A stretch of 34,813 nucleotides of DNA, taken from positions 1-34,813 of the forward strand of contig DF237715.1 of NCBI GenBank assembly GCA_000708835.1, in the 5' to 3' direction. This stretch comes from Klebsormidium nitens. Taxonomy: Eukaryota; Plantae; Klebsormidiophyceae. A program made the position numbers and the translations under genes. The notes below the pieces were generated by a model that saw only the letters and a list, made by a program, of their open reading frames with translations, ran no database searches and was not told where the DNA came from. Positions 1-34,242 of the stretch are shown here, one piece after another (position 1 is the stretch's first letter; each line of letters begins with the position of its first letter).

Positions 1-272
1 GGTCGGTCACAATAAGATGACATCGAAACCTCTCCTAAACGCTTATTTTCTTGAAACTGCGTGCGGGGGGCCGAAAATTGTTGAGGAATCTCGATTTTTC
101 ACCTTTATTAGTGGTTATAATAAAGCCACGTGTCACTTACGGCCAGTGGCTGCATGCGTTCCTGACTTTAGGTTCAACGGTTGATCGGATCCGAGGCCTG
201 CAATGACAACGAATGCACTAGGGGGCCGCTCTTTATTTCCTGCGCTAAGCATTATCAGTGCATCAGGCTACC

Positions 273-779
273 ATGGACCCGATCAAACGCAGTTTCAGAG
301 TCGTTCAAGCATTTGACGACAAACGTGCTGATGTTCTAGCGCTGCTTGCCGATAGCCGGCTGGAGATTGACGCTGTCAAGGGCCGCCCTTGTCAGGCTGG
401 GGCCCGAGCAGGATCGCAGCTACACCGCACGCAAAGATGCAGAGGCAAGCAGTTGCCATTACCCGTTAGCTTTTGTATCATGATCCAGGAAACGACCCGA
501 GGCTCTGCCAATAAACGGTTTGGATACACCGTTCATATCTCAGCCGTTAAAAAGTGCAATCGCCCGACCGACATGCCCTTCAAGGGTACCTTTCAAAGCA
601 CGGCAACGAAGATGCTGCCGGCCGACTTTGACGCTCTGAAGAAACCCTCGAAACCAAAGGCCGTTCGCAAGCCGTTGAAGAAGCCCCCGGCCCCTTGTAA
701 GAAGACCGCCCCACCGAAAACGAAAACGCAAAGGAAGCCCGCAGCAAAGCAAGCCGAGTTGGACTCCGATTGCGATTAG
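273..779 (+). CDS. Hypothetical protein with Lys/Pro/Ala-rich basic C-terminal tail
   Basis: ATG at 273 (ccATGG) in ORF 258..779; tail LKKPSKPKAVRKPLKKPPAPCKKTAPPKTKTQRKPAAK; no family recognised; may be spliced. Confidence 0.35.
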   Translation: MDPIKRSFRVVQAFDDKRADVLALLADSRLEIDAVKGRPCQAGARAGSQLHRTQRCRGKQLPLPVSFCIMIQETTRGSANKRFGYTVHISAVKKCNRPTDMPFKGTFQSTATKMLPADFDALKKPSKPKAVRKPLKKPPAPCKKTAPPKTKTQRKPAAKQAELDSDCD

Positions 780-870
780 TTCAACGTGAGGCCTCTTGAA
801 TACCCGAGTTGAAGGACGATAATATTGTCCCACGCGTGTATTTCCTAACGCTGACGTACACAATCATTCA

Positions 871-1104
871 ATGGCACACGTCGTGCATCGTGTTCAAAAC
901 GAGCAAGAGCACGACATGCGGCATCTCGTGGCCGACATTAACGGTCTCAATCTGATTTCGGACGGTGCTGATCAACTAATGAATAGAGGTATGCAGGTTC
1001 GCTTCCCAATTCATTCCGCTAGTTTGAGGAAGGGCATACTAAAGTTTCTAGCACGCGCATTTGATGATGTAGAGTCCAAGATGACCGCGTTGAATTCTCT
1101 GTAA
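871..1104 (+). CDS. Small hypothetical protein (77 aa)
   Basis: ATG-started ORF after an A/C-rich leader (caatcattcaATGG), convergent with the helicase gene; no recognisable motif. Confidence 0.3.
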   Translation: MAHVVHRVQNEQEHDMRHLVADINGLNLISDGADQLMNRGMQVRFPIHSASLRKGILKFLARAFDDVESKMTALNSL

Positions 1105-1210
1105 GCTATCTAGATGCGGCAGTGGGAGATAAAGGCGGACACATGGTGCAGCAATGCATGACAATCTTGTATGTAGGAGAGCAGATGCTTGACACGGGCT
1201 TACGGCGCGG

Positions 1211-1909
1211 TTACATTGAGTCCATGTAAGCATTTATTCCGGGACTGGCTAGCAGAGACGGTCGTTCACAATTACCAGGCCTTAAAACACTTTGACTCCT
1301 GCTATCCTTCCTCTCAACGAGGCTGTGTGGGGTTGACGTGTTGAGTCGGAACCCTCGGTAACCTCGGGCTTGATGCCCAGGGACTACAAACCTCAACTCT
1401 GAGGGCTTCTTCGGCCCCTCCAGGCCCTTCTTTCTACAGGCGTCTGCAAACTTGGTGGTGCTCCGGATAATAGGACCCTCCGTATCCCCAAACCTCACAC
1501 CATCGATCAACCTGTCTAAGTTGTTGTAGGCTTCCATCAGGCTATCCGTACTTTCGAAAGCCTTCACGTCCATGGTGCCTTCCCTCTGAAGGAAAGCTGC
1601 AAACGGGTCGTTCTCCTGCTCCCACATCTGCATGTACGCCTTGCTGGCTCCTGGCATATCCAGAAGCCGCCTCCCACTGGCGTACCAGTCCTTCGCACCT
1701 TGTACCAGAAACACCAGCAGCTTCTCGATCTCGGCCTTTAAGGCGTCTTCGAGTTCGGGATCACGCACTCCGTGAAGGGGGTTGTCGGGATTGCAGCCGT
1801 CTTCGTCGGGATAGAAGAATCGCATCGGGAAGACCAGCGTCAACAACCGTCGTTTCAGCGCCGCCGTCCACGTCTTTGCGCGAGGGGGGTAGTTCGAGCA
1901 CAGAATGTG
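1211..1909 (-). CDS. Last exon: SF3 helicase motif C, Arg finger and C-terminal region
   Basis: Acceptor ttcattggcag at 1910; HILCSNYPP...ALKRRLL...FPMRF; ends with ARGYRGFRL, typical of P4/D5 helicase C-termini; stop at 1211. Confidence 0.85.
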   Translation of the reverse strand, partial: HILCSNYPPRAKTWTAALKRRLLTLVFPMRFFYPDEDGCNPDNPLHGVRDPELEDALKAEIEKLLVFLVQGAKDWYASGRRLLDMPGASKAYMQMWEQENDPFAAFLQREGTMDVKAFESTDSLMEAYNNLDRLIDGVRFGDTEGPIIRSTTKFADACRKKGLEGPKKPSELRFVVPGHQARGYRGFRLNTSTPHSLVERKDSRSQSVLRPGNCERPSLLASPGINAYMDSM

Positions 1910-4900
1910 CTGCCAATGAAGGAGGTACACATTATAAAACATACGCAGACATGCAATCTTCTCAATCCGGCCGTGGACGAGCTGTTGTCTGCCAAGAGAA
2001 CATACCAGCTACGGTTTTCTCTTCATAGACAACACAGACGGCCTGGACAACACTTTCGAGAAACCTTCGAACTTCGGATTCGGCCTTATCGATTGCGCCC
2101 AAGCCGTGGACAGATGTGCTGTCCACCAAGAGAAAAAACCAGCTACGGATCTCTCTTCATAGACAACACAGACGGCTCAGACAACACTTTCGAGAAGCCT
2201 TTGAAATCCCTATTCGACCTAATCGGGTTTGCCCAAACCGCCGTGGACGGATGTGATGTCCACCAAGAGGAAAAACCAGCTACGGATCTGACTTCGTAGA
2301 CAACACAGACGGCTTAGACAACGCATTCGAGAAGCCTTCGAATTTCGGATTCGGCATGATCACTCACCAGGTGGGTCGTTTGATACGTGACGTAATCTGC
2401 ATACAACGCCCTGCTCGTGATTGTCGTCTCTCCTGTCAGGCGCTTCAAATCAGACTCCGAGATTTCGTCCGTCTCACCCGTCTCTAAGCACACCGCTATC
2501 CGGGTGTCTCGCAAACCTGGCAGATGCAAGTGATCATATCAGGCCTGTAAGCAGACATCAGCAGTGGGGTTCACTGAGCATATTCAGGGGGCCGACGTCC
2601 GGATCGCAACAAGCCCCATGCGCAGGGACAGCCTGGCATGCTTTGGGCAACTAAGCGACACGTGGCTGGACAAGAGCTTGCATTTTCTCTTTCTTTCATT
2701 TGACTTGAAAGTAACAATCCTATCATGAGATGATACGTCAAAGAGGTATCTTCTCTGTACAGTGCAGAGAATGCGTCATGTACACGTGGCTTTACTTACG
2801 TGCTTCATCCGGATTTGCAGCACCCTTCCCAAGCGGCCGTTGGCCCTTAGACGTCAAGAGCATGTCCTTGGAGACATCCTTGTAGAACTGTCCAAGGAGA
2901 TGCTTCACAAGACCCAAGAGGAGGCTCTTTCCCGCCGATCCCTCTCCAATCATGATCAGCATGACCTGGTTGGATGTGTGCCCTGTGATGCCGTATCCCA
3001 GGATCCGCTGGAGGTAAGCGAGCGCCTCCGGGGTGTGCGTGATCTGGCTCAGGAACTTGCCCGTCTTGCCCATCGGCATGGCAAGCCCCGTCGAAGGCCA
3101 CGTAATAGGAAGCTGGAAGGACCACATATACTGCAAAACGACAATCCGCTTTCAATCCCATGCTAAGTCCTATGGTTTGGGTTCGCTGCACAAGGAGCAC
3201 ACATTCTTCGCATGAGGCGCACTTAGCAAGCTCAGGTTGCCAGGGTCAAGCTCGATCTTGCACAAACCTCAGATGCGGCCAAGTGTGCTTTGAAATCGAA
3301 ACCAAAAGCCTCTCAAATATGGAATCGGCCGTATCAATTGTGGCTGACGAGCGTGGACAGCGGTGCTGTCCGTCAAAAGCGAAACCAATCTACGAATCTC
3401 CTCTCATAGACAACACAGACAGCTTGAACAGCCCTTGCAGAAGCTACACAAATCTGGGTTCGGCCCTGTCAATTGTGGCTGGTCAACGAGCGTGGACAGA
3501 TGCGCTTTCCATCAAGAGCGACATCAATCTACGAATCTCCTCTCATAGACAACACAGACAACTTTGACAGCACTTGCAAAAGCCTCTCGACCTCACCTTA
3601 GGATGATGGGCAACCAGGGTCCCCGTCTGCAGCAGGATGACACCGTTCTGGACAGGCAGCGCATCCTTGTCCTTGTTCAGGGCGTCCTCGAATCCCGGCT
3701 CGAGGCAGTAGCCCTTCAAGGTCGTCATGATCTGGCTCATCTTTGCGTTAAAGTTGAAGTTGACGAGCTTCTCCTCCTGCCCCTTCTGTTGAGGACGATC
3801 CCCCCCGTCTTCTTCCTTTGACTCGCCCTCTTCCTGATCAAGCTCGGCCGCGGTCTCCTTTCTATATGCGGCGCTAACCTTGTTGAGCTCCCCACGGCAG
3901 ACCTTGCTCGCAAGACGCCCGCCCACGTCCACTACCCACATCGACCCGTTCCAATAGTACCACTTTTCATTGCAGAACACGAGCTTGTGGCCCGTGTACG
4001 TCTGCAGGCGGTCGATGATCTGCGCACCTCCCTCGTCCCCTGGAGAGGGTTTGAAATCTAATGTCAAGTGCAGCATTCGTTGTCTCATGCATTGAATCAC
4101 TAAATCGAGCAATATCACCAGGACAGACCATCAGCGATACACATGGAAGAATCTCTTCTCGAGGGCAACTCCAGACATCCATCTCTTCTACGTTGTCAAC
4201 AGGTGAGCATCGGGGTTACCTGGACGCGGTACTGTTTGAGAAGTGTTCGGGACCGAGAGGGCCGCGAGGTTTTATATAACCTCTCAAACTCGAGCAGCGT
4301 TTGCAGATTGTTGTGATGCGTACCTGCCACGACCGAAAGGTTATTCCGCAGGAAGGAGAAGGGGAGCAGCTGCCGGTCCTCGTAAAGACGATCGCGGTCG
4401 TTGTTCAGGGGCATGGCGTCTGAGAAGGCCGCCGCAACCGGAAATGTGAGACGCCCGAGTTTCCTGTTGCGGCGCCCTTCCGCGCCGGTCTTGCAGCGCT
4501 CGCTATGGCAAATGTAGGTGATTTCCGTCCCCCTTCTCAGAAGACCGAAGTTGTTGCTGCTGTGCGGCTGCCCCCCTTGCTCTGCGTACGGGCATGGCCG
4601 ACCCCCTGCATCGTTGCGCCAGTGGTACATCACTGCGTCCGGGCCCGCCACCGTGTTGGCCTCCGCCTTTGAGAAGACGGACGAAGTGTCGCCGGAACTG
4701 TTGAGCATGCCTCGCATGACTTCGACCACCTTCCGCTGCAGGTCGGTGTCCCAGAGGTCTGGCGCGCGCGACGCAACGGGCGGCTCGTATCTCACACTGG
4801 GACCCGCGTCCTTCCCTGTGTCAGACAATGGCCCTTTCCGCCGGCCCCCACACCCCCCGCCCCTCACCGACTCTCGCTCGTTCAGGATCTTGATCAGCCA

Positions 4901-6101
4901 ATCTGGAAGGGGGGACAAGTCGTCCGTGGAGGGGAGCTCGGTCGCACCAACGACAGTGTAGCGCGCCATCTCCCCGGCCCGCTCATAGGAGGACGGCGGG
5001 CACGCGATCATGCCGCCCGAGCTCACGCCCCTCATGTCGACCCCCACCTTCTTCATCAACTCCTTTCCCGATACCGGATCCAGGACCTTCAGTTCGAGCT
5101 TCGCAAAGTGCGTCGGGGTGTCTGCGCCCAACCCCGCATCCACACTCTTCCAGTGGGAGAAATAGACGTGCACACCCCCGCTGCCAGTGCGCACTCGAGG
5201 AGTGACGAACGGGCCGTGCTCTCTCTCCCACTCCGCTAGCTGGTCCATGCCCCCATCGCTATGATCAAAGTCCATCACGGCGATGCCGGACGCCGTTGTG
5301 TTGATGAGCAATGTGTTCTGGGTTGATTGGAAGAAGGAGGCGGTCAGGCAATTGGCGCGGGTGGTGGTCTGCCACTTCCTTGGAGGAATCATGCATTTCC
5401 TCCACTTCCCCCTTTCGAACTGGGGTCCCAAACTGTGTCCGCTGTGAACACCACGTAGCCCTTCGCAATCATGGCGCAGGCTGCAGTCTCCTGCAAGAGT
5501 GACGAGCAAGCCATGAGTGCAGATTCAACAAGACAAGATTTGGCGCCAGATCAAACGCGTGATTTGATTCTTGTGTTGTCTTCAAATTTGGAGCTTATGT
5601 TCACAGCAGCGTGGCGGGCCCCTATTCGAAACCATATCAAAAAGGGTGAAAGACTTCCCGACCTGCCGTCCAACTTGTCCAAGCCGTCTACGAAGAGAAA
5701 TCCGTGAATGTAAGCTCCTCTGGATGGACAGAGCCCCTGTCCAGCCGAAATGAGTCACAGCCGCGTTCAAAGACATCCAAAATCAGATCTTCGAGCTACT
5801 TCCAAACTGCCGTCTAAGCCGTCTACGAAGAGCAATCGTTGAATCAAAGTTGCTCTTGGTAGACAGCGCTCCGTCACAGCCAATATCAAGTAAAGATCCA
5901 CATAAGGCTTACCATCTCGCTCGCTCGAATCTCCCGCTCTTGATCCGCACGGCGATGGTCAGATGGTGTGTTGGCTTGCTGTGCAGGCCGGTCGTCCAAC
6001 ATCTCCCTGTCCGCTGCGGTCTCCTCTACCTCATCGTCAGCACCTTCGCAATCATCCCCCATAGAGGCCGACGATTGGTGCCGCAACGGGCTAATCGGTT
6101 C
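1211..6101 (-). CDS. Spliced Prim-Pol primase/polymerase + Zn finger + D5_N + SF3 (D5/P4-type) helicase, about 990 aa, with one apparent frameshift
   Basis: Exons 6101-5913, 5490-4324, 4039-3597, 3130-2800, 2516-2368, 1909-1211 join at GT-AG sites with matching phases once 1 nt is added at the C5 run 5408-5412; AEP and SF3 motifs all present (see exon entries). Confidence 0.85.
1970..2350 (+). repeat. Repeat cluster A: 3 tandem units (periods 133 and 137 bp) in intron 1910-2367
   Basis: GTGGAC starts at 1973, 2106, 2243 (perfect gtggacag-atgtg-ctgtccac at 2106-2126); 9-bp-phased GAC triplets at 2026/2035/2044, 2160/2169/2178, 2297/2306/2315. Confidence 0.9.
2368..2516 (-). CDS. Exon: SF3 Walker B and motif B
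   Basis: Phase-1 join gives PDEA-R-LRDTRIAVCLETGETDEISESDLKRLTGETTITSRALY; donor CTG/gtgagt. Confidence 0.85.
2800..3130 (-). CDS. Exon: SF3 Walker A
   Basis: FLSQIT...YLQRILGYGITG...LIMIGEGSAGKSLL (Walker A at 2924-2947); acceptor ttttgcag, donor C/gtaagt. Confidence 0.9.
3320..3570 (+). repeat. Repeat cluster B: 2 units (period 139 bp) in intron 3131-3596
   Basis: gtggacag at 3353 and 3492; ctctcatagacaacacagac with tagac at 3407 and 3546. Confidence 0.9.
3597..4039 (-). CDS. Exon: D5_N-like domain
   Basis: GDEGGAQII...KWYYWNGSMWVVD...LNKDKDALPVQNGVILLQTGTLVAHHPK; acceptor ctctccag, donor AAG/gtgagg. Confidence 0.85.
4324..5490 (-). CDS. Exon: bifunctional primase-polymerase (AEP, Prim-Pol type) and Zn finger
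   Basis: IAVMDFD, RTGSGGVHVYF, GVDMRG..GGMIACPPS; CPY...HSSNNF...CHSERC; donor GCAG/gtacgc; the N-terminal AACAMIAKGYVVF segment is in a different frame upstream of 5408-5412. Confidence 0.85.
5660..5880 (-). repeat. Repeat cluster C: 2 units (period 135 bp), inverted, in intron 5491-5912
   Basis: gtccaactt-gtccaagcc-gtctacgaagag at 5668; tggacag-agccc-ctgtcca at 5725-5743; second gtctaagccgtctacgaagag at 5812. Confidence 0.85.
5913..6101 (-). CDS. Acidic low-complexity upstream exon of the primase-helicase gene (or first exon from ATG 6062)
   Basis: tttgcag acceptor, ATG/gtaagc donor; 63 codons, phase 0-0; joins as EIRASEM-ETAACAMIAKGYVVF. Confidence 0.55.
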
Positions 6102-6283
6102 CTGCAAAGGTTGAGAGCATGAGATTGGCGCGCAAACAAGCGTTGTTGGAGTGACTCTTGGTCCGTTATATATTAACCCAGCACGCGGCGCGTGGCTCTT
6201 GAAAAGGACGTGAAAAACGAGGCCAATTCTTCAAAAAGAAAACGGCTGCAAACATAGTATCTATGTGCGCAGATGCTCCGTAC

Positions 6284-8029
6284 CGAGCGGGGGTGACTGC
6301 TGGCGGATGAGGCTTGCCCGTCTTCAATTTTCAGGTTCGAACTTATGCCGACATGCATCGGCGACGCTATAAGCGGATCTTGCAAGCCATTCGGCAGTCA
6401 CACATCCGACGAATCTAGCGACCGGCAACGTCAGGACCCGCACACGGGGCCCCGGGCAAAATCGAATGCGAGCTTCTACATGGCGTGTGTATATGTGCAT
6501 CCGAGTTGTACACTGCGTGGATCAAATGACGCAAGGTCAGTTCAGCATTCCCAATGCAAATGGTGCTGCAAAAGGTAGGGAAGGGGGGGCGGGCCCAGAT
6601 TGGATCTGATGTGATTAACAAGCCATGTTCGGCCACGAAATTGCTACCCTTAAAGAGTATAATTAATTTGTCCCGACCTACTCAAAGCCTACCGACCGTG
6701 ATTCTGAAGAAAGTCGTTTAGAGGTACATGAAAATTCCTGTACTTCGCCCTCTCTGTTCAAAAGTTTGAGCTTCAGGCTTGGCTCAGGGGCATTCTGCCT
6801 GGTCCAAACATAAATACACCCTTCTGGCGCAGCTCCAAAGTGGGTCCAAACAAGGTTGCAATTCTCACGCCCTCATCATCTGCTGCGCCACCAATGATGG
6901 CCGCGTCCGACCCCTCATGTGCACTCGCTGGCCCTTGCTCGCGCTCCGAACATTTTTCCTCATGTAGCTTGCGTTTCTTGCCCCGTTCAAGACCGGAGGC
7001 GTCTTCAGATTCCATTGGCGCCGCCAATACACCACAACCCTGCGCACATAACAGTGACGTCATGCGTTAATGATCGAGCACTGTCGAACGTAGGCAGATT
7101 ATCGTGGACAGGAAGTCTGTCCATCAAGAGAGACTTCAACCTACGAATTCCTCTACATGGACGGCTTGGACAGCTCAGACAAAATTTCAGAAGCCTCCAA
7201 CGTTTGCAATCTCGCCCCACATACCAACTGCCTCAGACAGGGGTTCTGCCCAAGGAGAGAAGATTCGATCTACAAACCCCTCTACATGGACGGCTCAGAC
7301 GGCTCAGACAAGACTATTAGAACCCCCCAACATTTGAGAGACCGGCCACCATGGCCAAGTGCCGTGGACAAGGTTCTGTCCATCAAGAGGGGTTTCGACT
7401 AAGAATCCCTCTACATGGACAAATTGGGCGGCTTGGACAGCATTCTTAGGAGCCCCAAGAATTCGACACGCCGCCCTGCTACCGCCAACTTGTATCCAGG
7501 AGATACCGATGCATGCTCTTCTAAACCGTCTATAGCTCGCAACAAGAACAAAACTCGTTGCAGGGTCAGTGGCGTGCGCAAGGGCGCTTTTTTAGAAAAG
7601 CGGACTCACCTGTTTACGGCACTCCCTTCCAGCATCATCACGGAGCCGTTTCTGAAATGCTTCAAACGGACTACTGAAGAGAGTTTGCCTCGCGACTTCA
7701 TCTGGTAGGCCCTCCATCTGGAAGAAGAAGAAAAGAGGACTTTTCAAGAGGGAATAACCGACGCTAGCAGTGCTACCAAATGCCAGATGAAACTTGTTCA
7801 CACCAACTTCACAAACCAAGCACAACTTCACACACGAGTGCACACACAACCTTCTGGAAGTTACCCAAGTCCAACAAGCTAAACAGCAGCCATAACAGAA
7901 CGACCACCAGCATCTTCAATGAGCACAGGGCGATGCCACCTACCTGACTTGCGCGTCGGTAAAGTGCCAGTTCTGTAGGCTCAAGTCCAACCTTGATAGC
8001 GTGCTGGTCCACCTGGACACGCCATTCTT
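6284..8029 (-). CDS. Possible further 5' exons of the same gene (8029-7944, 7717-7610, 7039-6820, about 6368-6284)
   Basis: Good splice sites (CAG/gtaggt, ttccag/ATG, CAG/gtgagt, gcgcag/GGT) with compatible phases; encodes EEWRVQVDQHAIKVGLEPTELALY...RGKKRKL; no family recognised; could be a separate gene. Confidence 0.35.
7100..7440 (+). repeat. Repeat cluster D: 3 units (period about 129 bp)
   Basis: Palindromes at 7104, 7234, 7364; cctctacatggac followed by 9-bp-phased GAC motifs at 7158, 7287, 7416. Confidence 0.9.
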
Positions 8030-9174
8030 CTACACACAATCGTAGAAGAAGGAAGGACGCGTAAGGACGACATCCCACGTGCAAGCCCTAACTTATGCCA
8101 ACACGCCTAGCGCTGCCAAGCTGCCCCGCTGAAGTTCTTCCAGCATGAGCAGCTAGTACACTACGACTCACCACAAGCCCAACGCAACCTCAGCGCAAGC
8201 GAAGGCTCAGTACGCGAGGCGTCTGAGCACTAGATCAGAAGATAAACTCAGGAACGAGAAGGAAGTAAGGGAACTCTATCATGCTATCTAGACACCTAGG
8301 CGCTGTGATAACATCTGCTGAGTACTTGATTTTTTCAAAACAATCAGGACCAGGTGGCGCCATGGGCCACAGACCTAACAACCAACCTCAAGCCCCCTCA
8401 AGCAACATCTCATTCAGAAACATGATTACAAGTATGTAGGAGCCCCTTTGCAGTCACCAGCGACTAACGACCGGCCACTTATATCTGTCCAGCTGCACCT
8501 TAGCGACCAGAACAACAAAAACAAACACATGTCTGCGCACGGCCAGGTCTGCCCTGAGCTAGCAACTAAGCTCAGAATCACTAGCAGGACTAATCTAATT
8601 GACGGCAGCTGAGCACTGAGCCAACCTGACATGATAGAATCAAGCTGAAGCAAGAACAGAGCAGGAAACGATAAGATGACGACTCACCCCTGGTTTTAAT
8701 TGCAAAGCGCTGGGGGAATCGAACGCCTGTTCTGTCTCAGCAGGTTGGTCAGGTCGTGATTGTCGCCTGACAGCCTAGACTAGCAGACTAGGCACAGTGT
8801 GATATATGCAGCCCCGTGTGAGCTCACAGGCGGGCAATCGGCGTCACGGTATCCTTGTCGGTGACTTCTCAGCCTACAAACTCCAGCCTGTGGGGAACGC
8901 TCTTCAGCTCTTAGCTCAGATTGAAAGCCTACTTCAACCATACACAACCTGTCTAAACACCTATGCAAACGCTCGAGCTGGGAACCTGGCACCACCCAGG
9001 TGCGGAACACTCAACAAGACGCCGCCCACCTCAGATCATGGTGGTGGTGCTGGTGGTCACTTTACTTGCAAGTTGAACAAAAGGCAGGGCTCTCAGCTTG
9101 CTGATCAGCTACAGCTTACGTGGCGAGGCAGGCGGCAAATTCTGTTTGCAAATTCTTGGCAAAGGTTCCACCCC

Positions 9175-9381
9175 GTCTGAGCTGTCCGGACTGTCTATGA
9201 AGAGGGGCTTGTAAATGATATTTTGTCCCGATGGACAGCGTGCTGTCACCCAGGCAGCCCGGCGTCTGACCGAATTTACTCGAATTTTTCCGGAGGCTCC
9301 AACCCCGGTCCAAGCTGTCTGAGCCGTCTATGACGAGGGGTTCGTGAATGATTTTTTGTCCCCATGGACAGCGTACTGTCC
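9175..9381 (-). repeat. Repeat cluster E: 2 units (period 133 bp), inverted
   Basis: gtctgagct-gtccggact-gtctatgaagagggg at 9175; gtccaagct-gtctgagcc-gtctatgacgagggg at 9308; tggacag palindromes at 9232 and 9365. Confidence 0.9.
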
Positions 9382-9506
9382 GAGCTCGGAAACGGACGGG
9401 GCGGTTAAGGGGGGGCCTCTGGCACCGAAAATACCGGCGCTGGTGCCCGGTTGGGGACTGGGCTGGGCGTTCCGGGCGTGGCGCAGCCGCGGGTCTTGCC
9501 GGCAGA

Positions 9507-9554
9507 GGGGACACGTGTCGATCTGTGGTTGGGCAATTTTATCCCGTTCATCTC
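9507..9554 (+). repeat. Dispersed motif of about 48 bp, copy 1
   Basis: ggggacacgt-N7-tgtggttgggcaattttatcccgttcatctc; near-identical copy at 24597-24645. Confidence 0.8.
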
Positions 9555-9886
9555 GGCGTCTAAACGGAGCTCTCACGACGAATACGCGGTCGCATCTCGT
9601 TTCTTATTCGGAATCATACCTTAGCCGTACGGGTAGGGGGTCCACTACAAAATGACCCTTACCGTGGCTAGTATTACCATTACCGTAGGGTTTCAAGTTT
9701 CAAGTTTAGAGTGCCTGCCTTCTTCTGGACAGGATCGAAGTTGATTCTAACCAGGTTTTGTGGACTCTTCAAACTCGACTGGTTTTCTTCATAGCTTTCA
9801 TGTGCTTCCTTGCAAGGCGCTTTGAAGTGCAGCATTGAACAACATTGTAGAGGGGAAGTACACAGAGCAAAAGGAGTAGTAGGAAG

Positions 9887-12800
9887 ATGAAGCAGAAGAA
9901 AGAGAAAAACGATGAGAGTGGTGATGGGAAGGGTTCGGTCCGGGTCCAGGGCAAGAGGGCGAAGGGTAGGGACAGGCAGGAGGGACAGCGGGTGGTACAG
10001 GGGGCTGGCAAGGAGCGGCGCTTCCAGCCAAGGGCTTTCAGGAGCAGAAAGGTGAATTATATGTGCAAGCCCGTTCCCCAAGGCTCAGATTTGTGGACTC
10101 AAGTTGGTCAGGAAGCGGAAGCATTTGAATACATGGAGAACAGGCAGAAGGAGACCCAATGTGCGAGCCCCAGGGTGGTGCACTGGTCGAGTGAGGCTGA
10201 TGCAGGCGAAGGAAGGAGACTTGGGATCCAAAAGCAGAGCACCATCATGGAAGGCTCTGTTTGGAGCGAGGGCGTATTTTGTCCCCCTGAATGAGTCTGC
10301 ATGTCGGCCAGGCACGTGCACTGGAGTCAGGTCAAATTGGGGTTATGTCATGCTGTTCACTCTTTGTCCAAATGTCTTTGGACAAACCAGAGCATTCTGG
10401 GCAAGTAAGCTAGTGGAAGACAGCTGCACAGCACACACAACTTCTTAGCTTCCATTTTCCCAAAATGGTCTTCCTCGTGTCTAGTCCCAGGAACAAGTGT
10501 ATATTTGTACAACTGCGACAGGCGCGATGCGACAGGCGTGATCAGTGACCTCAGTTCCTCAGGTGTCCTCAGATGTTTTAAATCTCAGACTCCTTTCAAA
10601 GCATGGTATCTCAGGAAGTTCCTTTCATAAGCATTTTGCAGAATGATCGAAGCGTACCCTTAGACCGTTCTTCTGATTCTTCCAGGAGGGGAGGCTGGAG
10701 GATCTGGGCTGGCCAGCAAGGAAGGAGTGCCCGCGAGCTCCTCCCCCTGCCCCCCACGAGCCCCCCTGTGCGGGGAATGGAGGGCCCCTGACATGGGCGG
10801 TCCCGGAAAAGAGGAAGCGGCCTGCTGACCCCCCCGCCCCAAGACCGGAGCCACCGCGCGAACCACCAGGGTTCTGGGGCGAGGGGGAAGGAAGTGGAGG
10901 AAGGGTCGTGAAGGAGGGAAGGGAGGGGCCGTGGCGTCACGAGGAGAGGGTGAGGGGAAAGCGGAAAGCAGTTGCTAAGCTCCAGGGAAAGAGAGGCCCG
11001 GGTGTGGGTCTCTGGATAGCAGCCGGCGAAGAGGAGATGGGACCCTCCGCCGAGGAGCTGGCGGCTCGGAAGAGGTCGAAGCGGAAACGGAACATAAAGA
11101 AGGACCTCGAGCGCAAGACTGCAGTGCGAGCCGCCAAGGAGCTTAGGAGGAGAAACAAGAGGGACGACGCCGCCCTCGCGATGTGCGCAGTGGTGCTCCC
11201 CACGGCGAACCCCTTCCGCGACCCCCCCCTCCCTCGTAGAACGCGCTGTTGCCCGTTCTGTACTTATGCCGCGTTGCACACTGAGAGGACGTGGGCGGGG
11301 TGGAGCCCTGAGTTCATTTCTCATGTCTGTGATAAGTGCGTGGAGCAGCGGGCGAGGCAGGAGCGGTGGTGGCTCGCCGAGCTCGCCGACTTCCCTGACA
11401 TCGAGGCCAGGGAACCGGGCGCGACGGGCATGATGTGGGAGCACGAGGCCATGCTTCACCGGCGCCTCCACCTGCGCCGGCGACTCCGCCGCAAGCTGCG
11501 AGCCAAAGCTTCCGAGCGCAGTAGGGCCGGCAGGGATCCCACCCATCCAGCCCGCATGAAGAAGTGCCCCCTGTGCCCGCGGCGGGGCAAGTGTCAGGAG
11601 GCCGACGCCCCGGAAGCTCCGCCGGTCGAGACCCCCCCGGCAGCGGAGGCGAGCGGCAGCGAGGCGCTGCGGGCCGAGCGGGGCCGCCTGGTGCTGCTGC
11701 AGATCATGGGCGTGCCGCGGTGCACAGAGCGCAAGCTGCCGCTGGAGCTGGAGGCACGCATGGGGCTGGTGGTCAGTGGAGCTGTCGTTTCCTTGCTGTC
11801 GATCGGGAAAAGACGGCTCTTCTTGTCAACAGTCCATCTGCATTCGATGGCACGGGGTATGAGAATGAGGAGGCAGTGTCGTGCAAAAATGTCTGCGAGC
11901 ACTTCCCTGCTGGCAGTTGGACGTGCTCTGACCTTCATCTGGAGTCTGTAGCTGGGAAAGAGCCTCGAGCCACAAACCTCAGGACTGGAAGCTTTTCGAG
12001 GCCCTCTTCTGAAAACGAATGATGTGGCCCCCTCAGACCGTTGCTCAGCCTACCATCACACCACTTCAGCGACATGGTGTCGAAGGTCTTGTGATGCGCA
12101 TTAGTTTGTAAAGCGCTTTATCATATCGCAGGTGCTGGTTCTTGCGGCCATCTTGCTCTGCTGCTGGCTGCTGCTGTTACTCTTCCTGAGCGCCATCGTC
12201 ATCAACAAGCCTAGGCACGAAAGCGTCCTACAGGTCAGTCGCACCTCCGCGCAGCGGAGGTGCTTTCGTCTTCACGTACAACCTTCGAGTTTCTCCTTCT
12301 CGCTGCCCTGGATGTGTGTGGGTTTAGTCCTGGGGGGACAACATGTCACCTTGGGAGGCGTACATCTGTCCTAGAAGGACTCGGGTCGAGCTGGTGAGGT
12401 GGGACTGGATCTGGGGGAGCACACGGGCCGAGGACGGTGGTGAAAAGCTTGCAGACTTTCAGCTGACCTTTGGGATCAGGGCAACAAATGTACTTGCGCT
12501 GGCGCTGGCGCTGGCGCTGGCGCTGCGATTTGTCTGAGACAGCCAAGCGCCAAGTCCTTCGAGAAGAACGAAAGCTCTTTGAGTGAGAAGGGTGCCGACG
12601 GACTGCTTTCTTTGGACTATCAAGAGACAAGATGAGAGATTGAGGCAGCGGCTGAGGTTAATCGAGAGGACGCCTAGCCGAGGGAGAATGAGAGCAGCCA
12701 GCAAGTTTGCTGGACAATGCGCTCGACAAGACGAGACTGACGGCCGCATACCTCGTAGCCAAGGTTGCCTCACGTTGTCTTCGTTCTCCACGCTCCATCC

Positions 12801-15485: not shown

Positions 15486-16162
15486 GTGACGGCTCGTCAG
15501 GATGATGCAAATCGTGGAGATGTGAACACAAAAATCATGAGTTTTGAGTTTAGAATCTTGCAATTGTCAATCCCCGAAAGGCCTGCAGTTGAAGACGCCG
15601 GAGGCCAAGGCGGCCGAGCTGAACGACGTTTAAGAGTTTTGAGGGGCACGAAAATATTCCCCGAGGGTGCTTGAGAGAGTGTATTTTCTCCACTAGCAGC
15701 CATGATTTCTTGATACCCAGCGATCCGGTGTTTGACTGGAAGCTTGGACCCTTCCATTTTATTCTTCTCTCTCTTTCATTTTCTCCTCTCTGTTGCCAGT
15801 GAATTCGAATCTTGAGAAGTACCTCCCGAGCCTTGTCCTGGCCTTGAGATTCGCTCGAACTCCTATATTCGGTCTGCTGACTCACGGGAGGCGTCGAATT
15901 GGACTTGTTTCAAGATATGCTTGGACTACAGGGCTCGACTTCTCACAGGGCTCGACACGTTTATTCAACGAGGCATTAGAATATGCAGTCCCTGGCTACG
16001 CTGGAGCCACTCTCCATTTTCGTCGCTCTCAAGCTTATTCCGTCTTATGAAAGGGCTCTCATAAATCCAACACTCTGTCGTTCCTTCCCTTCGCTGCAGG
16101 GAGAGTCTCCCGCTGGTTCTGTGGATTCCATGCATCGCGCGCCAACATGCAGGGGACCAAGA

Positions 16163-19100
16163 ATGCAGCTTCTGGTTCGAACACCAGAAGGCGGAACCCT
16201 TGCGACGTTCACTGCTCCATCTGCCACTGTCGCACACCTGATGACGCAACTAGAGGTGGGTGGCTAGCCTTGCTGTGGTAACGGCGCTCCGACTATCTCA
16301 TTTCCGGAAAAGCTTATGCTGAAAAGTAGAGCTTGGCTTCTGGTATAATGGTAGGTCAATTGAAGTTGAAGTCAGTTGAAGTGAGGCAAGCAGCTCTGCA
16401 GTTTGTTGGGGTGCACCATAATTCAGACGACAGAGATATGTGATCTGGAGTGGTACGCGAAGCACAAGGTTGGACTCTGCAATGGACTGCGAGATCTTAG
16501 AACGTATTTGGCCCGGCTGCTGATACCTAGCGCAACGTGCCCCTCACATAGGTTTCTTCTGCGTGTAAATTCAGGGGCTGCTGCCAATCGCGGTCATAAG
16601 GCTGTCCTTTGGTGGGCGGCCTCTCGATCCGACCATGCCCCTACGAAGCTATGGGATCAGGCCCCTCCACACACTGGAAGCCCAGTATCGCCTTAGGGGA
16701 GGAGGTGGACACGGTGACGAGACCGGAGGAGCAGGAGGATCAGCTGAAAGCCGCACTGCAAAGGGGGTATGTCTCACCTTTGCATCACCTCAGCAACTTT
16801 CTAGTTTTGGACTGCGGATTTTCGTTACAAACGGTTTCCATAAGATTCGTACCAAGGCCACAAAGTGCCTTCGACATACCGAGCTGCAACCGGTTTCCTT
16901 TTACCGAAAACAGCTATGCATCCGTGCCTAAACCCCGATCTCGGAGAAGGTGGTCCAGGCAGCCCTGATTGCTTGGCAGGGTGGCAAGATTGCAAGTATG
17001 TGTCCTGGATGCCTGTTTGAGACCACGCTCTTACACTGTAAGCAACTTTCGCTTCTTGGTAACAGAAGATGTTGCCTTTTGGTATTTAATAGCAACTCGA
17101 GATTGCATAAGCGCAATCCAGGCCTTAACAAATCTGTTTACAGGGCAGCTCAGATTGAGTTGGAGTTGTATTGGGAGCTATGAGGTCCCCAGTCAGGGCA
17201 GAAACGGTTTGGATTAGAATGGAAAAATCTGGTAAGGCCATCTCGAAGAGGCCGTATCCTTTATTATCGTACAAATGCTTTGCCGATGCTCGGGAAAAAT
17301 CCTCTTTCGCTTTCCAACATTGTGCTTTCGATCGGGCCTCTGTGTCCCCCGCATCCAGCACACTCCCAACGACCGGCGCTGTAGCAAAACAGGACATGCC
17401 CAAGACAAGGTGGGGCTCGGACAATATGGTGCCGTCGAGGGTGAGCTGGGAGTCGTTGCCCTCAAGATTCACAAGTTAGATTTGTTCGGTTGCGGGACTC
17501 TTGCTAAAGTCGCTTTTCCCTTGCAGGACGCATGCGAGAAGTCGTACATCTACATCACGAGGAGGGGCTCCTCCGATGCTTCCGATCCGATCCCCTTGCC
17601 CTGCGAACGGGTTGCGGTCATGCAGTACCTCGACGAGGAGCTGGGCTGGGGAAAAGGCCGTCTGCTTCGACGAACTGGTGACGAAGAGGTTGCGACGCTC
17701 CCGGGGGACAAGCTTGAGGCCGGCGAATACGTCTTTGTTGCTCAACAAGGTGAGGGCAATTACCGTCATCTTCCTGCTCTCGTATGTGAAGGAGTCCAGT
17801 CGAGTTCTGATCTGACCCTTGGGGCTCGTGGTGAAAGCTGCTGAAGCAGAACCCTCGTTGGACGTGATCCCAACTTACAGAAAGTCGTTGGGCTGATTAC
17901 GGTCGTATCGATAGGGACCCATTCCTCTCGTAACGCTCTTGCCTCTAGTTTCTGGTTGGCGATCCGAGAGAGGCCGCCTGGCAGCTGCGAATTCTGGTTT
18001 TCCGAGCACTCGAAGAGAACTCATACGAAACCCAATTCAAGCTGCGATGTACATCTTATAGACCATGTTCGAGGGAGTCGTAAGTGGGGTTCTCGTCTTC
18101 TGCCTCCTTTGTCTTTCTCACGTAAACACTTTGCTGGAGTGCACTCCAGGTGGCCCGGACGTTTCTGTTGTCGAGTGGTTGGTGTCCGAATATGGGGATC
18201 TACTGAAGAAGGCGCATTCTCGCGAGCCGCTTGGTGCCCTGAGGGATGGTGGCTTCGATCCCGAAGCTGCAATCCAAGACCACATCAGGCTTCAGGGCCG
18301 GAAGGAGGCGTTCGAGTGCTGCATCACATTGATGGCGAATATCTTCAGTATCTGGAAAAGGCGGAATCCCAACCTTGACCAGCGGGACTACCGGCGGCAC
18401 GTGGTTCATCTGCTTCTATTGAGCTGCCCCGGGTCAGGTCAGTCCTTCCGGAAGGCTGGTCCATGCGGCCATGGTTGCTGTTAACAAGCATCTGTGCGTA
18501 AGCTCCAATCTGATGCTTTCGTGTCGCGCAATTCATGGTCCTTGGTGTGACAGGGCCAGTTATTAGGTATCCTTCCTTCTATCATCTTCAAACCCTCACC
18601 GTTCCCTTCTTGCCGCCTCTCAATACTTCCTTCGATTTGACGTACACAGGAAAGACGACGTTCTTGACCTATATCCTCCGCTGGCTGAGGGAGTGGCTCA
18701 AGAAGCCCAGCGCGTACCTGAAAGGGTGGCTAGGAGGAACTATGTTCGGCGAGGGAAACCTGTCCGGCGAGAAGTTAAAACTAGTGCACGAGATGCTTGG
18801 CGCGTTGCGCATAGCTGCAGGCAGCACCGGATTCCACACGTTCGGGATGCTCAGGCAAGTTTTAGTCTCCGCTCTGATATCGACTGTGGAGAACGGAGGT
18901 GTCTGCTCGGCAGTTAGGGACTTTCTTCTGATCGTCTTAGTTTAGTGGCCAGCTCACTCGCTCGTCCATTCATCCTTCTCTTGCCGCTCTTCTGTTTGCA
19001 GTGCTTGTTATAGGAACCAGTGTTTGTGAAGGGCTTTTGTGGAAAGTTCAATTAAAATCGTCTCTACGATTCAGGGTGGAGGAGGAGGGCGTGAGTACTA

Positions 19101-22100
19101 CGGAAGCTGAAGCCGCGGACGGCTTCACGGCCAAGAACGCGCCAGCGCTGAGGTTGCTCTACGCACTCCTATGCCCTCTCGACTCCACGCCGTCCGAGAA
19201 ACCGCCAGGGGGATACTATTCCTTCCTGCGCCGCTTCTCTGAGGGGCCGTCCACCGTCAAGGATCGCATCTTGATCCAAGACGTCGTCGCTTTCGCTCGC
19301 GAAGGGCTCGAGATCCCCGAAGGAGAACTGCTCCTCATGCCCCTGTTGATCGACGAGGGCAATATTGCCAAAGGGGTGTTTTTGAATGTGAGCTTCTTCT
19401 CTTGCTGTTTCGAAAAGCTCAACGGCTTCTCCTATTACCGTCGAGTTACCTGAGGAATAGAGCCTGTCGTTTCCAGAGGGACGTGCTTAAGACCCTTTGG
19501 TTTCTTGGCGCTTCCTTTCAAAGTGCAAGATGAGTTGCACAGTCTTCAAAACTTTCAGTCTGCGTTTGTCAAAGTGCTTGTTCCCTGGCTGCAGGTTTCC
19601 AGCGGCAAACTGCAGAGGTCTCCTATGCTCGACTTGACTGATAGGTTTCTTCATCGTACCTTGCAGGAGAATCCTCCCCAAACAGGAGACAACCCCACGT
19701 GGTTGAAGTGGTTTCTTAGTAAAATCACCCTCGCTAACAACGACGACACAAGCAATCTGAACCTGATCATCCCCATAACCGCAACAACGCGGTGGGATTC
19801 GACAAGTCTTCAGTGGACTGCAAGCGGGCAGGCTCAAGCCACTTATATCCCCCTCAAGCCCCTCTCCCTGACTGAGCGAAAAGAAGTGATTTGCGATCTA
19901 GCTACCCGTGTAGCAGCTCACAACGGTCGACCCGCACTCGATCACGAAGATCTGCCCCTTGCCCTGCGTAACGACGGCCTCGACATCGTTGGCGGCAATC
20001 CACGCCTTGTGTCGTGGCTGCTCGAGGGCATTGGGGGCCGGTCCTGGGCAACGGGTAAGCACCTTGAATCTGCACTCGCACAAAGAGCACAGACTTCGGA
20101 GAGTTCTTGCAAGTAAGGAAGAACGCCTGACACACTGATCTAAAAAAGAAATGTCGGCTGGATAGCTCCCCTCCATCACCAATTGTCGGGCTTCCTCCGA
20201 AAGTCACCCTAGTATCTGCAGGTCAGGTTCATTAACAAGGTGGAATTAAAGTCTCCGCGTAGCGAGGCTCGTATGCTTCCTCCTCAGTGGCCTTGACATT
20301 GTGGAGAATCAGTACCCGGTTGGGAGCTTTTCTTCTGAGATGTGCTAGGAGAATCGCATTCCCATTGTCACACAGCTCTGCCGATGGAGCTGCAGCCCAT
20401 CGTTGGTCCTGGTAATCACGATTCATTGTGATGGTTCTTCCACTTTTGTGCAGGCCTTGACGAAGCCGTCAAAGCCATCACGCCTTCGAACCTGGTGAAC
20501 ATTGTGAAGAAAGTGAAGCAGGCGGCGTATGAGCAATTGAAACTCAAAAGAATCATCGACCTCACAGCGTCGCCGGAGGTTAAGAAGAGCTGCCTGCAGG
20601 TTGTGGTCGCGACGATGATGCTGGATCTGCTGGTGAAGAGGAAAGAGAGATTGAAGGACCCGTTTTCGGGGCTGGACTTGCCCATCACCTGGGGGGAGCT
20701 CGAGGGCGACGGGGTTGTGGAACTTATCCCCCTGGTGAGCTCCTCAACCGCTAAAGCTGATCATGCACGGTTAATATCAGCAGCCTTTCGTACGGCCTTT
20801 GATGTAGGTCAGCATTTGTTGCTCCACTGGTCGCTTTATCGAGCACAGGGCGTGATGCTTCCAGCAGAGTTGTTCAAGGGACCGTGTTTCGAAAAGGTAA
20901 CGCTTCTGCAAGAGCAAGCAGTGCCTTCTGGCATGCGTTCTCAACATGTTCTTCAAGTTTTGCAATTGGGCAAACACTGAAGATGCGCAAGATTGTCAAC
21001 CCTTCCGTCTGTCGCTGCAGCTCAGAGTCGGGGTTTTGCAGCCAAGCCAAACCGCCTCAGGAGGCCCAAGCTCCACCAATCCCAACTCGGTGCAGAGGTT
21101 GCCCGAGGACCTTCCGTCAGCGACTCGAGCGACACCTGCTCCTCTCCTCATTCCCCTAAGCCAGCCATCGTCACACCAGCCCGTCACTCCCTCTGCTGCT
21201 CTGCCTGCGCAATCGGCCACCGCGCTTCCGATTCCTCCGAGCCCAACTTCCCTTTCTCCTTTAGAAGGAGCCGATGCCGCAGAACCTGTCGCAACTCCTT
21301 TGCCAGGACCGTCAGTGCGCAGCGGCTCTGCTTCGGGAGCGTCTTCTCCCCCCTTCAACCGCATGGGGAAAGGTGGGCGAGGAGAGGTCGTTGTTAGGGA
21401 TGAGGATTGGGGGGTGCTCGTTGAGACTGGAAGTGGGGACAACACCTCCCCAACCAAGCTGGGTATGCTGAACCGGGAGACGGCGTGCCCCCAGCCCACC
21501 AGCGAGCCGGGCGACGAATGGGTAAAGGTGTCTATGGGTTTTTTCATGTTCACCCTTCTGTTGGAGAGGATGGAACTGGTCCGAGAAAGCGACCTGAGCG
21601 CTTTCAGTGATGCCATGGTGCGCGAGAGCCCACTAGACAAGGAGAAGGCGGACGTGATGGCAGTGGCTTTGAAGTTACAAGCTCTCCATCTAATCGGACG
21701 GACTGAATTCTCCCTGAGCGAAGCCTTTCCAAACCTTCGGATACCCGCGGACCTTGCGGGCAAGCGCTTCTTGGTTCCCCCTGGCCCGCTTAGTGTGGGC
21801 GACGGGCTCCCCATGGGTCACCAGCTGACGAAACAGGCGTTTGCCACGACAGTGGCCGCGATAGCGGGCAAGATTCAGGAACGGATACGGGCAGGAAAGT
21901 GGGGCAAGGAGGCCCTCAGTATCGGGCTTGTCGGTCCCGGTAATGACGGTTGGGATGGGTTTGTGGTCTTGCTGGAAGCGAAACGAGACCCGAAGAGAGA
22001 CCCGTGGGTGCTCTTTTGTCAGAGCAAACAGGAATCGAGCCCCACAGAGGGCTATGTAACTTTGAAGGAGATCTTGCGCAATCTGGAGAGCGATATTCGG

Positions 22101-22793
22101 CAGACGCCGTACAGCCCGCCCACACTTCCAACCCAGTGGGTGCAGTGGCTGCGGAAGGAAACGGATGAGGCGCAGGAAGCGCATGCACCGGCGGCAGGTA
22201 GTGGAGATGAAAAAGCGACTGGGGCCAAGCTTGAAGAGGCGGGGAAAGCAGTCGGAATCGGCAAAACGAGGGCGGGAAAGAGGCCCAGGCCCGAGGAGGT
22301 CCAGGAGCGCGCCCTAGGTGCGATCTCGAAAAAGCGTGCGCTCGCCGGTACTGGGGAGACCGTCCCGGGTGGCGGTGAGCAGGCAGGGACAGGGCGGACT
22401 CGGTCGAAGGTATCAGCCGCCGGTGCCAAGGAGGAGCCGAAGGGGCGTAAGCGCAAGGAGCCGGAGAAGGCGGGAGAGGAGGAACTTCTTGTGGTCAGAA
22501 AGGTGCCAACAGGGAAGGAGAGCGAGCTCAGACCGGCGGACAGATTTCCGGATCAGGACTTCGGCTCCGATTGGACTTGCAATATGATCTACAGCTTTGT
22601 TTGCGATAGGCGATTTAGTCGTCGGCAATTGAACCTACTGAAGGAGGTTGAGCGTAGAGGGCATCCATGGTTGCAGAGGCTCCTGATAGTTTCCCGAGAG
22701 GACCAGGATAGTTGGTACAGTCGGATTGGAGCCCTACGTCGGTCGGCAACTTTGCACTGGCTGTCCGAGAAGATGGTTCTAAAGGACCGGTAA
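16163..22793 (+). CDS. Crinkler/RHS (CR)-type protein: ubiquitin-like header(s) + P-loop NTPase + PD-(D/E)xK restriction-endonuclease-like domain, about 1190 aa
   Basis: Exons 16163-16255, 17527-17749, 18150-18437, 18650-18854, 19075-19387, 19667-20054, 20454-20734, 21021-22793 are phase-compatible; MQLLVRTPEG (ubiquitin-like start), SCPGSGKTT, PALRLL, LLIDE, GGNPR, GNDGWDG...LFCQSK; 5' exon set uncertain. Confidence 0.75.
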
Positions 22794-24596
22794 GATTCAA
22801 GGAGGAGGGAGGAGGGAGGAGGAAGAGCTTAATGTTTGAAGGCTCACGGAAAAATCTGCTAAACGGCAAGGCAACAGTGTGAGCATGGTAACTTTAGTTG
22901 CCAACTTGGCAACAAGGTTAATTTGCTTTCACAACATAGTTGCAGAATCACAGAGAGTTCCTTCAGATTGCATTTGATAGGCCGTTTCCTAAATCGTTGG
23001 GTCCCTTGAGCGCACATAATAGCGCCACTTGTTTATATGCGAGTTCGGATCCCTCAATCAAGCGCTGTTCTGGCGTGCGTGTAGATGTCCGCGAGCCTTG
23101 CTTTGTTCCGTCCCTACCTGCCTATGTATATAGCGCTGGTTGGCTAGGCGCACAAAAATGCCTTCTCCTGCCATTTCAATGTTGATCCTTGGAATGGACA
23201 TCTGGTGCATGTAAAGCAAGTGCACTTCGCGGCTATCTCGGACTTGGCGGATCAGAATCAAGTTGCACTCGGTTCCTTTTACCCAATACATCCGGACTTT
23301 CACAGGCAATTAACGTGCATTGGGCCAGACCTCGCATGTTGTCGACCATGCATCCACGTGTAGTATGACAAAGCATCATTGGGAAAGCGTCATATAGTTG
23401 ATTCTTAATTCATTATTTCATCATGTGCAATGAATATACCAGGATCAGCCGCCAGAATTGGAGTAGCTTCGGTCAGGCGTATAGGCAAGTCCGTCCAACC
23501 CCTTACATGTATGGGCTTCGCTCGACGGCGTGTTGCCCGATGGCTCTATGCGTGGCTCAGCTAGAAGGGTTTATAATCGAGCTAGTGACCATGATGATGC
23601 AAACATTCTCGTATAATTAGTTGGCCATCATAGCTTGACGTATCTCAATTAAAAACGCACCGCTTTGGCTGTCTGCAATTTCATTTGAACCACCTTTGTG
23701 CATGCACTTATGCAACTAGGGCGCAACTATATATCAGGACGTGCCAAATTCTATGAAGATAGTTTCATGTCTAGCTTTTGCAACAAAGCAACATTATATA
23801 GAATGCAAAAGCTGGACAGTAGTCAACAGTGCATTGATCTGGTTGCTTGCAATTGCCTTAATTCTGCCGCTGCAATGCTCTTGTCTACAGTAGAATGCTA
23901 GATGATTCAGCTAGACCCATTGAGGCTCAGCGCAACCGGTTCCATTACCAAGCCAAGCTGCGCTGTGCGTGGAGCTGCTCAGTGGTTTGAGCTGAATCAG
24001 AAATGAGCAGGTAGGCCATGATTTTGTGAAAGGTTTTTCGGCTAAACTGACCTGCTCCTCAAGCATATTGTCAAGCCCCGCACAGAGCGCTGGCTGCAGC
24101 AAATTGCTTAAGTCGGCATCGTCCAAAACCCCTCAAGAGACGCTGGATCAGAAGTGCGGTCCTGAGTTGGCAAACTTTACGAGAGGGATGTTGCCAGCCA
24201 CAGTTGCGGAAATGAGGGATGTACTCCGCCATAACTTGAGAAATGAAGCATCATGGCAACTGAGTGGTCTTTATGCTATCCTAGTTTTGCAGTGGCTCGT
24301 TAGGCAGCTGTACCCGTTGAGCACTGGCTACTTAGCTGTTTATGCACGTTTGCTGGCCCTCAGCTGCTAGATTGTTCAAATTGACAAACGTTTTGCGACT
24401 CTTCCCGAGGGAACAGGACGAGTCGCAAAACTGGCCCAGAAGAAGAGAACGTGCAGACAAGGGGGAGAAGGACGCGGTTTGGACCCAGTGGTGGTCAGCA
24501 TTGCAGTGAGAGGGGAAGGTTCGAGGTTACGCGGCAACTCCCGAGCTCACCGGGGTCGGCCCGGGCGCGGGGCCGCAGCCTTCCTTCGCGGAGTGG

Positions 24597-24645
24597 GGGG
24601 ACACGTTGGCGGAATGTGGTTGGGCAATTCTATCCCGTTCACCTC
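24597..24645 (+). repeat. Dispersed motif of about 48 bp, copy 2
   Basis: ggggacacgt-N8-tgtggttgggcaattctatcccgttcacctc; ORFs over both copies translate VVGQFYPVHL. Confidence 0.8.
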
Positions 24646-34206: not shown

Positions 34207-34242
34207 AACCCTAAAACCCTAGAACCCTAGAACCCTAAAACC
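34207..34242 (+). repeat. Short interstitial telomere-like tract, (AACCCTAR)4
   Basis: aaccctaa-aaccctag-aaccctag-aaccctaa-aacc, a variant of (TTTTAGGG)n on the minus strand. Confidence 0.75.

Follow-up and report, generated by a model that had tools for sequence, protein, structure and literature searches.

The window analysed here is the whole 34,813-nucleotide stretch of contig DF237715.1 (assembly GCA_000708835.1) from the alga Klebsormidium nitens; it contains a spliced gene of 10 exons on the minus strand (1178–9196), annotated in part as KFL_007660010 in the NCBI names for this species, and twelve copies of a repeat unit placed in four of the gene's introns and at its 5' end. The spliced gene encodes Prim-Pol and D5_N (both Pfam matches) and a superfamily 3 (SF3) helicase, and its product is referred to below as the replicase. 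Exons 1 to 5 are found at 8688–9196, 7944–8029, 7610–7717, 6869–7039 and 5913–6101, and exons 6 to 10 at 4324–5490, 3597–4039, 2800–3130, 2368–2516 and 1178–1909, as read from RNA-like contigs. All nine introns are bounded by GT..AG and are spliced in contigs of four RNA-like runs from four studies; a single contig of 3853 nt covers the gene from 9164 to 1178. None of these runs is on record as RNA, and they are read as RNA because the nine GT–AG joints are present in them and absent from the DNA run.

The replicase is not encoded in a single frame in this copy. The first frame of the mRNA (minus strand, 5389–7717; 189 codons, from the ATG at 7717 to the TGA at 5391–5389) encodes an acidic linker and the first helix and strand of Prim-Pol, and the downstream frame (minus strand, 1211–5425) encodes the Prim-Pol catalytic core, D5_N, the SF3 helicase with the Walker A motif GEGSAGKS and, in the last exon, a predicted winged helix; this second frame extends about 32 codons beyond the stop of the paralogues. 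The change of frame falls in a region (minus strand, 5398–5425) at which tblastn alignments of the relatives P0010, P0009 and P0006 switch from one frame to the other; the relative P0002 reads through. Since all four of these relatives cross the region in one frame and the RNA contigs show no indel there, the window copy is frameshifted in the strain. The TGA at 5391–5389 overlaps the ATG of the downstream frame at 5392–5390 (ATGA); reinitiation at this ATG is conceivable, yet would leave the predicted Prim-Pol fold without its first helix and strand. Programmed frameshifting was set aside, as the relatives are in frame and no canonical slippery heptamer was seen by eye.

The repeat units were first described in an earlier note on this DNA as twelve copies in five clusters with a period of 129–139 bp, none of them past 9.4 kb, and profile searches bear this out. 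A profile built from the eight units on the plus strand recovers four more on the minus strand (E 1e-14 to 7e-10; scores 33–49) and, besides the twelve, no other match in the window below E 0.003; the top score in 20 dinucleotide shuffles of the window is 6.8. The profile of all twelve gives exactly 12 strong matches, all within 1968–9387, and none in the remaining 27 kb. Cluster A (plus strand) consists of the five-site cores A1 at 1973–2051, A2 at 2106–2185 and A3 at 2243–2322 in the intron 1910–2367; cluster B (plus strand, 3353–3571) of B1 at 3353–3432 and B2 at 3492–3571 in the intron 3131–3596; cluster C (minus strand, 5665–5878) of C1 at 5665–5744 and C2 at 5798–5878 in the intron 5491–5912; and cluster D (plus strand) of D1 at 7104–7183, D2 at 7233–7312 and D3 at 7364–7441 in the intron 7040–7609. 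The orientation of the clusters relative to the gene is therefore mixed, with A, B and D on the plus strand and C and E on the minus strand. All four host introns are spliced with GT..AG ends in each of the four RNA-like runs, so that the intron 7040–7609, putative when only the genomic sequence had been read, is putative no longer. The placement of the units in replicase introns thus holds for four of the nine introns; the remaining cluster, E (minus strand, 9172–9383; E1 at 9172–9248, E2 at 9305–9383), lies at the 5' end of the transcript. It is not simply upstream of the gene, as had been claimed, since RNA contigs end at 9164, 9178 and 9196, at or inside E1; these ends weakly suggest a transcription start within cluster E.

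Each unit is composed of five copies of one 9-mer (about NTRGACRRC, with a GAC core): two facing 9-mers whose cores are 11–12 bp apart, a 41-bp step, and three direct 9-mers. The step is 41 bp in 11 of the 12 units and 40 bp in D3, and the 9-bp spacing of the direct sites is kept in 12/12 and 11/12 units for its two steps. The elements that had been singled out earlier are looser in their strict form: GGACAG-N4/5-CTGTCC, described as imperfect in some copies, is found strictly in five of the 12 units, and three GAC exactly 9 bp apart in nine of the 12, together with two chance sites in the window. Identity between units is 69–90% inside clusters and 53–78% across clusters; 55 of the 60 GAC cores are intact, and conservation is 0.97 in core columns vs 0.71 in other columns, the core columns having been chosen after the alignment had been seen. 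Indels affect the tail of the unit and spare the core. The palindrome is not supported as a folded hairpin: two-sided (compensatory) change is seen in none of six stem pairs, the consensus energy is -0.54 kcal/mol, and only two of the 12 units fold below z -2; Rfam gives no unit match at gathering level and a single weak match outside the units. Since sequence and spacing are kept and the hairpin shows no compensatory change, the units are interpreted as protein-binding sites rather than as a folded structure, and the absence of compensatory pairs together with the mixed orientation argues for read-out of the DNA sequence. Judged by their sequence, the units behave as phased protein sites on duplex DNA.

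The mixed orientation also allows for pairing in the pre-mRNA, in which oppositely oriented units (C with B or D; E with D or A) would form duplexes that steer splicing, nuclear retention or silencing. Predicted duplexes reach -85 to -117 kcal/mol, vs about -50 in shuffles, for all six pairs tried; however, such energies are expected of any diverged inverted repeat, and the fixed spacing and five-fold motif are left unexplained. Cluster E is mostly outside the transcript contigs, and no exon-skipping or back-splice joint is found in the four runs, whose contigs drop rare forms; this explanation is considered very improbable.

A putative binding partner is suggested by the predicted structure of an intact paralogue. 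A model of the intact paralogue P0010 (predicted local distance difference test (pLDDT) score 79.9) aligns with PriRep, the fused primase-SF3 helicase of the Staphylococcus aureus pathogenicity island SaPI5 (7om0; Z 27.5, root-mean-square deviation 5.8, 393 residues aligned, model residues 445–963), through the D5_N-SF3-winged-helix part and with the C-terminal domain included. African swine fever virus C962R (Z 30.0) and poxvirus D5 are also aligned through the C-terminal domain, and further fold matches include Yellowstone Lake virophage 5 and giant-virus D5. The N-terminal part of P0010 matches the pRN1 prim/pol structure 1rni (Z 12.9) from residue 87 onwards; as placed on this model, the frameshift of the window copy removes the opening helix and strand of the prim/pol fold. 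The window's own C-terminal domain, folded from a single sequence, reached a pLDDT of 37.6 and was not used. In this model the predicted C-terminal domain matches the winged helix with which SaPI5 PriRep binds iterons. The accessible part of PMC9371898 describes SaPI Reps whose winged helix binds 5–6-nt iterons; these lie in opposite orientation on either side of an AT-rich region that directly follows the gene, and the origins are single and just downstream of rep. For SaPI5, the available text of bioRxiv 10.64898/2026.10.17.759575 gives 7-nt iterons L2–L4 separated by AA, followed by the inverted L5 15 bp away, and one PriRep5 hexamer placing four C-terminal domains on L2–L4 and L5. The iteron period of 9 bp is our own arithmetic from the 7-nt iterons plus AA; on this count SaPI5 shares with the Klebsormidium unit three direct short iterons at 9 bp and inverted ones, and on the opposite strand the unit runs three direct, spacer, inverted, direct, in parallel to L2–L4, L5 and L6.

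By analogy with SaPI5, the units are predicted to be sites for the replicase of the surrounding gene, most likely used as origins and, at cluster E, also for self-repression; this reading is held with moderate confidence. In the manner of SaPI5 PriRep, the three sites of 9-bp period would each hold a winged-helix domain and the inverted site a fourth; the hexameric helicase would melt the DNA for priming and copying by Prim-Pol, with local re-replication, tandem copies and new insertions as the outcome. The additional clusters would provide further sites for loading or copy control, at the only positions where the reading frame stays intact, and at cluster E the replicase would damp its own promoter. 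The frameshifted window copy would most likely need intact relatives acting in trans. Gene and units are together probably the replication module of a selfish nuclear DNA element, old enough to have gained nine spliceosomal introns.

Whether units accompany the gene elsewhere, a check proposed in the earlier note, was addressed through the contigs of one DNA run, mapped on 1–10200 at 80% likeness; 98 of 108,628 contigs matched, 58 of them less than 90% alike, and units that differ as much as one cluster does from another would escape the cut-off. A contig of depth 17.6 matches in order at 5150, 6030–6057, 7409–7465, 7638–7723, 9175–9203 and 9338; these pieces are exon parts and unit parts of D3 (7409–7465), E1 (9175–9203) and E2 (from 9338), and none falls in the three unit-free introns in between at the same likeness. 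D- and E-type units therefore have counterparts at corresponding positions in a second genomic copy, in which the units appear to be better kept than other intron DNA; those of clusters A and C were not recovered, and may be private to the window copy or merely diverged. The traced unit matches lie on contigs that also bear exon pieces. In another DNA contig a unit piece is inverted relative to exon 3.

These data bear on the explanation that the units are a small non-autonomous mobile repeat or minisatellite, which would have been inserted repeatedly in both directions, expanded in tandem and tolerated in introns, its iteron look arising from duplication of a 9-mer. The higher likeness within clusters (69–90%) than between them (53–78%) is as after tandem duplication, and the mixed orientation, the inverted piece beside exon 3 and the units that the 80% mapping would miss fit this as well. 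Against it, depth at clusters A and C is that of the locus's own contigs and is little raised at D (26.1) and E (18.7) vs 14.8; on this measure, at 80% likeness, the abundant unlinked minisatellite or miniature inverted-repeat transposable element (MITE) that would have undone the earlier proposal is not seen. The other 27 kb of the window is free of units, indels spare the core and not the tail, and units exceed 80% in the second copy where unit-free introns do not. A small mobile repeat is rated as a rather improbable origin of the units. The sole inverted repeat of the unit is internal.

The replicase belongs to a family with at least 15 annotated K. nitens proteins. By their gene numbers, twelve of the 15 fall within the first three genes of a scaffold; six of the 14 scaffolds are shorter than 20 kb, and one pair of copies (KFL_002790160/170) sits side by side. 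These scaffold-edge gene numbers, short scaffolds and neighbouring copies suggest that the family is linked to assembly-breaking repeats. In a quick tree of 60 helicase regions, from which four rows without a recognised Walker A were dropped (one K. nitens copy among them), the 11 K. nitens rows form one group (Shimodaira-Hasegawa-like approximate likelihood ratio test (SH-aLRT) 100), which is deeply branched and contains two subgroups of near-identical members. This shape is probably the pattern of a mobile family, the near-identical subgroups being recent copies. Exon-sized fragments in JGI, ENA and Logan contigs stop at the K. nitens intron positions, and the intron-bearing form is therefore present in other samples. 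The nearest non-algal relatives are intronless proteins of 770–880 aa on environmental contigs; the closest of them form a clade of Prim-Pol-D5 proteins of 800–830 aa (P0015, P0171–P0176 and P0018) on contigs of 4–395 kb. Scans of metagenome contigs and four of six scans of viral contigs gave no match to the replicase; the other two gave 158 loci of distant relatives (24–35% identity; giant-virus fragments and phages), in whose 2.39 Mb no unit was found (best E 0.36–0.72), and among the matches listed from plasmid and phage collections there are only P4-family primases at 23–27%. Of 20 read-through tails, that of the relative P0097 agrees best with the translated iteron array, sharing 10 of 12 residues vs 7–8 in eight control regions; this weakly suggests a unit directly beyond the gene end, as in SaPIs.

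It may also be asked if the family goes back to an old viral insertion that is now domesticated or decaying, the units being left-over origin sites with no present role. The nearest non-algal relatives are intronless and environmental, the fold matches include giant-virus and virophage D5, the window copy is broken, and the accessible text of PMC5294986 lists giant-virus-like genes in K. nitens, with a D5 column that carries no family label. However, the two subgroups of near-identical recent copies, transcription with exact splicing in four studies, and the preferential conservation of the units speak against a remnant, which is regarded as highly unlikely. Methylation of virus-derived genes is treated in PMC12344493, in the part available, and the available part of PMC4052687 does not mention a primase.

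Several known systems come close to the Klebsormidium module. Like Polinton-like viruses and virophages, as described in the accessible parts of PMC12220804 and PMC11296320, it is eukaryotic, integrated and multi-copy with an archaeo-eukaryotic primase (AEP)-SF3 (D5-like) primase-helicase; unlike them, its gene has nine spliceosomal introns, and the same part of PMC11296320 gives their origin as only hypothesised, in terminal repeats. The pRN1 protein ORF904 (Prim-Pol-SF3-winged helix) has the same domain order in addition to the N-terminal fold match; the accessible text of PMC4234260 describes the pRN1 origin as a 100-nt stem-loop of conserved structure without iterons, whereas the Klebsormidium units keep sequence and spacing and not pairing. 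Replitrons and Helitrons, in the available part of PMC10288648, are likewise DNA transposons of eukaryotes that contain introns and owe their replication protein to a plasmid or virus; there the enzyme is an HUH endonuclease, in contrast to the primase-polymerase-helicase found here, and no HUH Rep is matched by Pfam in the window frames, which stop at the scaffold end. SaPI5 itself is bacterial and has an integrase, whereas the Klebsormidium module is eukaryotic with no integrase seen in the window. A literature search found no description of the replicase family or of the unit, most subscription papers lying outside its coverage.

Several observations weigh against the origin reading and the selfish element built on it. 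The SaPI5 spacer is 15 bp and 80% AT, and its central spacer is AT-rich too, while the 32-bp spacer of the unit has no AT bias (0.50–0.59, mean 0.55, vs 0.49–0.53 in five unit-free introns). SaPI5 has one origin just downstream of the gene; in Klebsormidium there are 12 units in introns and at the 5' end, their five clusters are spread across 7.4 kb, and none lies downstream in 1–1309, the profile search having found no unit anywhere in 1–1900. The module would function much as a SaPI5-type primase-helicase replicon does, but it lacks both the AT-rich spacer and the single downstream origin and is not classed with that type. A three-base core with loose flanks also carries low information. At 80% likeness no further contig from the DNA run matches cluster A or C, and reading the depth-17.6 chain as a single contig rests on equal depth values. 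The window copy can probably not make the full replicase itself, owing to the frameshift, and its gene is nevertheless transcribed and spliced. For the element as a whole, no capsid or packaging ATPase is matched by Pfam in 28 window frames or by PHROG in 17, in libraries that cover capsids poorly, with frames split by introns and a scaffold that ends 1.2 kb past the gene; no integrase, transposase or recombinase is found among the scanned frames, the left end being cut by the scaffold end; and no match longer than 24 nt, as paired terminal repeats would give, links 1–1300 with 9301–11000, again with the left end cut off. For the earlier proposal of initiator-binding or origin sites, which took as its models P4 alpha and SaPI Rep with their short iterons in both orientations, the Prim-Pol/D5-SF3 protein with its predicted winged helix, the phased SaPI5-like layout, the second copy and the low abundance of the unit at 80% likeness are in favour, and the missing AT-rich spacer, the lack of covariation in the hairpin, the missing A and C counterparts and the frameshift are against.

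A rival reading takes the units as phased sites for another protein with a role in element mobility or gene regulation; this could be a partition factor, a transcription factor of the host, or a transposase or recombinase whose gene lies past the break in the scaffold. Conservation of core and spacing indicates a protein site without naming the protein, cluster E is at the 5' end of the transcript, no AT-rich melting segment is present, and the shared flank of the locus continues off the scaffold. No such gene is found in the 35 kb by Pfam or PHROG, however, and three direct sites at 9 bp with an inverted one is the layout bound by the structurally matched primase-helicase. Subterminal repeats usually gather at the ends of an element and not in internal introns, where four of the five clusters lie. 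Binding by a protein other than the replicase is considered unlikely, and the replicase's own sites are preferred.

Repeated DNA is present on either side of the gene and may bear on the limits of the putative element. The downstream flank (1–412) is common to other genomic contigs, with a summed depth of 109 in 1–340 vs about 15–19 for single copy, and one contig joins this flank (412) to the last exon (1557) at similar spacing; as the scaffold breaks at this multi-copy flank, the element may continue beyond it. Within the flank, 357–412 (a short GAC..GTC palindrome with a hairpin at 373–395) is common to the contig of another copy. Two plus-strand frames, 249–779 and 823–1104, converge on the replicase gene and have no RNA cover in the four runs and no family match. 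Upstream of cluster E lies a second multi-copy stretch (9507–9860; depth 67 in 9521–9860), which may be the end of the element or an unrelated short repeat; a 49-nt motif at 9507–9554 (GGGGACACGT...TGTGGTTGGGCAATT...), perhaps a repeat of promoter type, recurs at 24597–24645 with 86% identity. A divergent spliced gene on the plus strand (9543–11951, intron about 10050–10683) encodes Cys-pair motifs and has no Pfam, PHROG or Atlas match; it is probably outside the element, because no second copy is seen up to 10200. The ESM Atlas gave no usable match for the frames 273–776 and 11037–11948. Further along the plus strand, 16000–22800 contains a ubiquitin-like fragment (weak Pfam match) followed by frames that by eye are NTPase-like and restriction-endonuclease-fold-like, an order that would fit the layout of CR (Crinkler-like) proteins, and 28600–32800 contains a cellulose synthase family gene of several exons (Pfam PF03552). 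A short degenerate telomere-like repeat (AACCCTAA units) at 34192–34242 is internal to the scaffold.

The units are real and are probably functional cis-sites in an undescribed intron-bearing replicase family. It is proposed, tentatively and with considerable doubt, that the family represents an undescribed class of capsid-less eukaryotic element, which would copy itself with one Prim-Pol-SF3 protein loaded on iteron cassettes within its own spliceosomal introns and would spread by autonomous re-replication and recombination without a transposase, frameshifted copies being origin-bearing passengers. The replication start sites of D5-type primase-helicases in eukaryotic viruses and virus-like elements are largely open, and a direct binding test is easy to design here, because twelve natural variants with a defined core and spacing adjoin the candidate initiator gene. 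If the family is mobile with neither capsid nor transposase, it would give selfish DNA a new route of multiplication in a nuclear genome, the host being an alga near the origin of land plants; it would also be an example of sequence-specific origins nested in introns.

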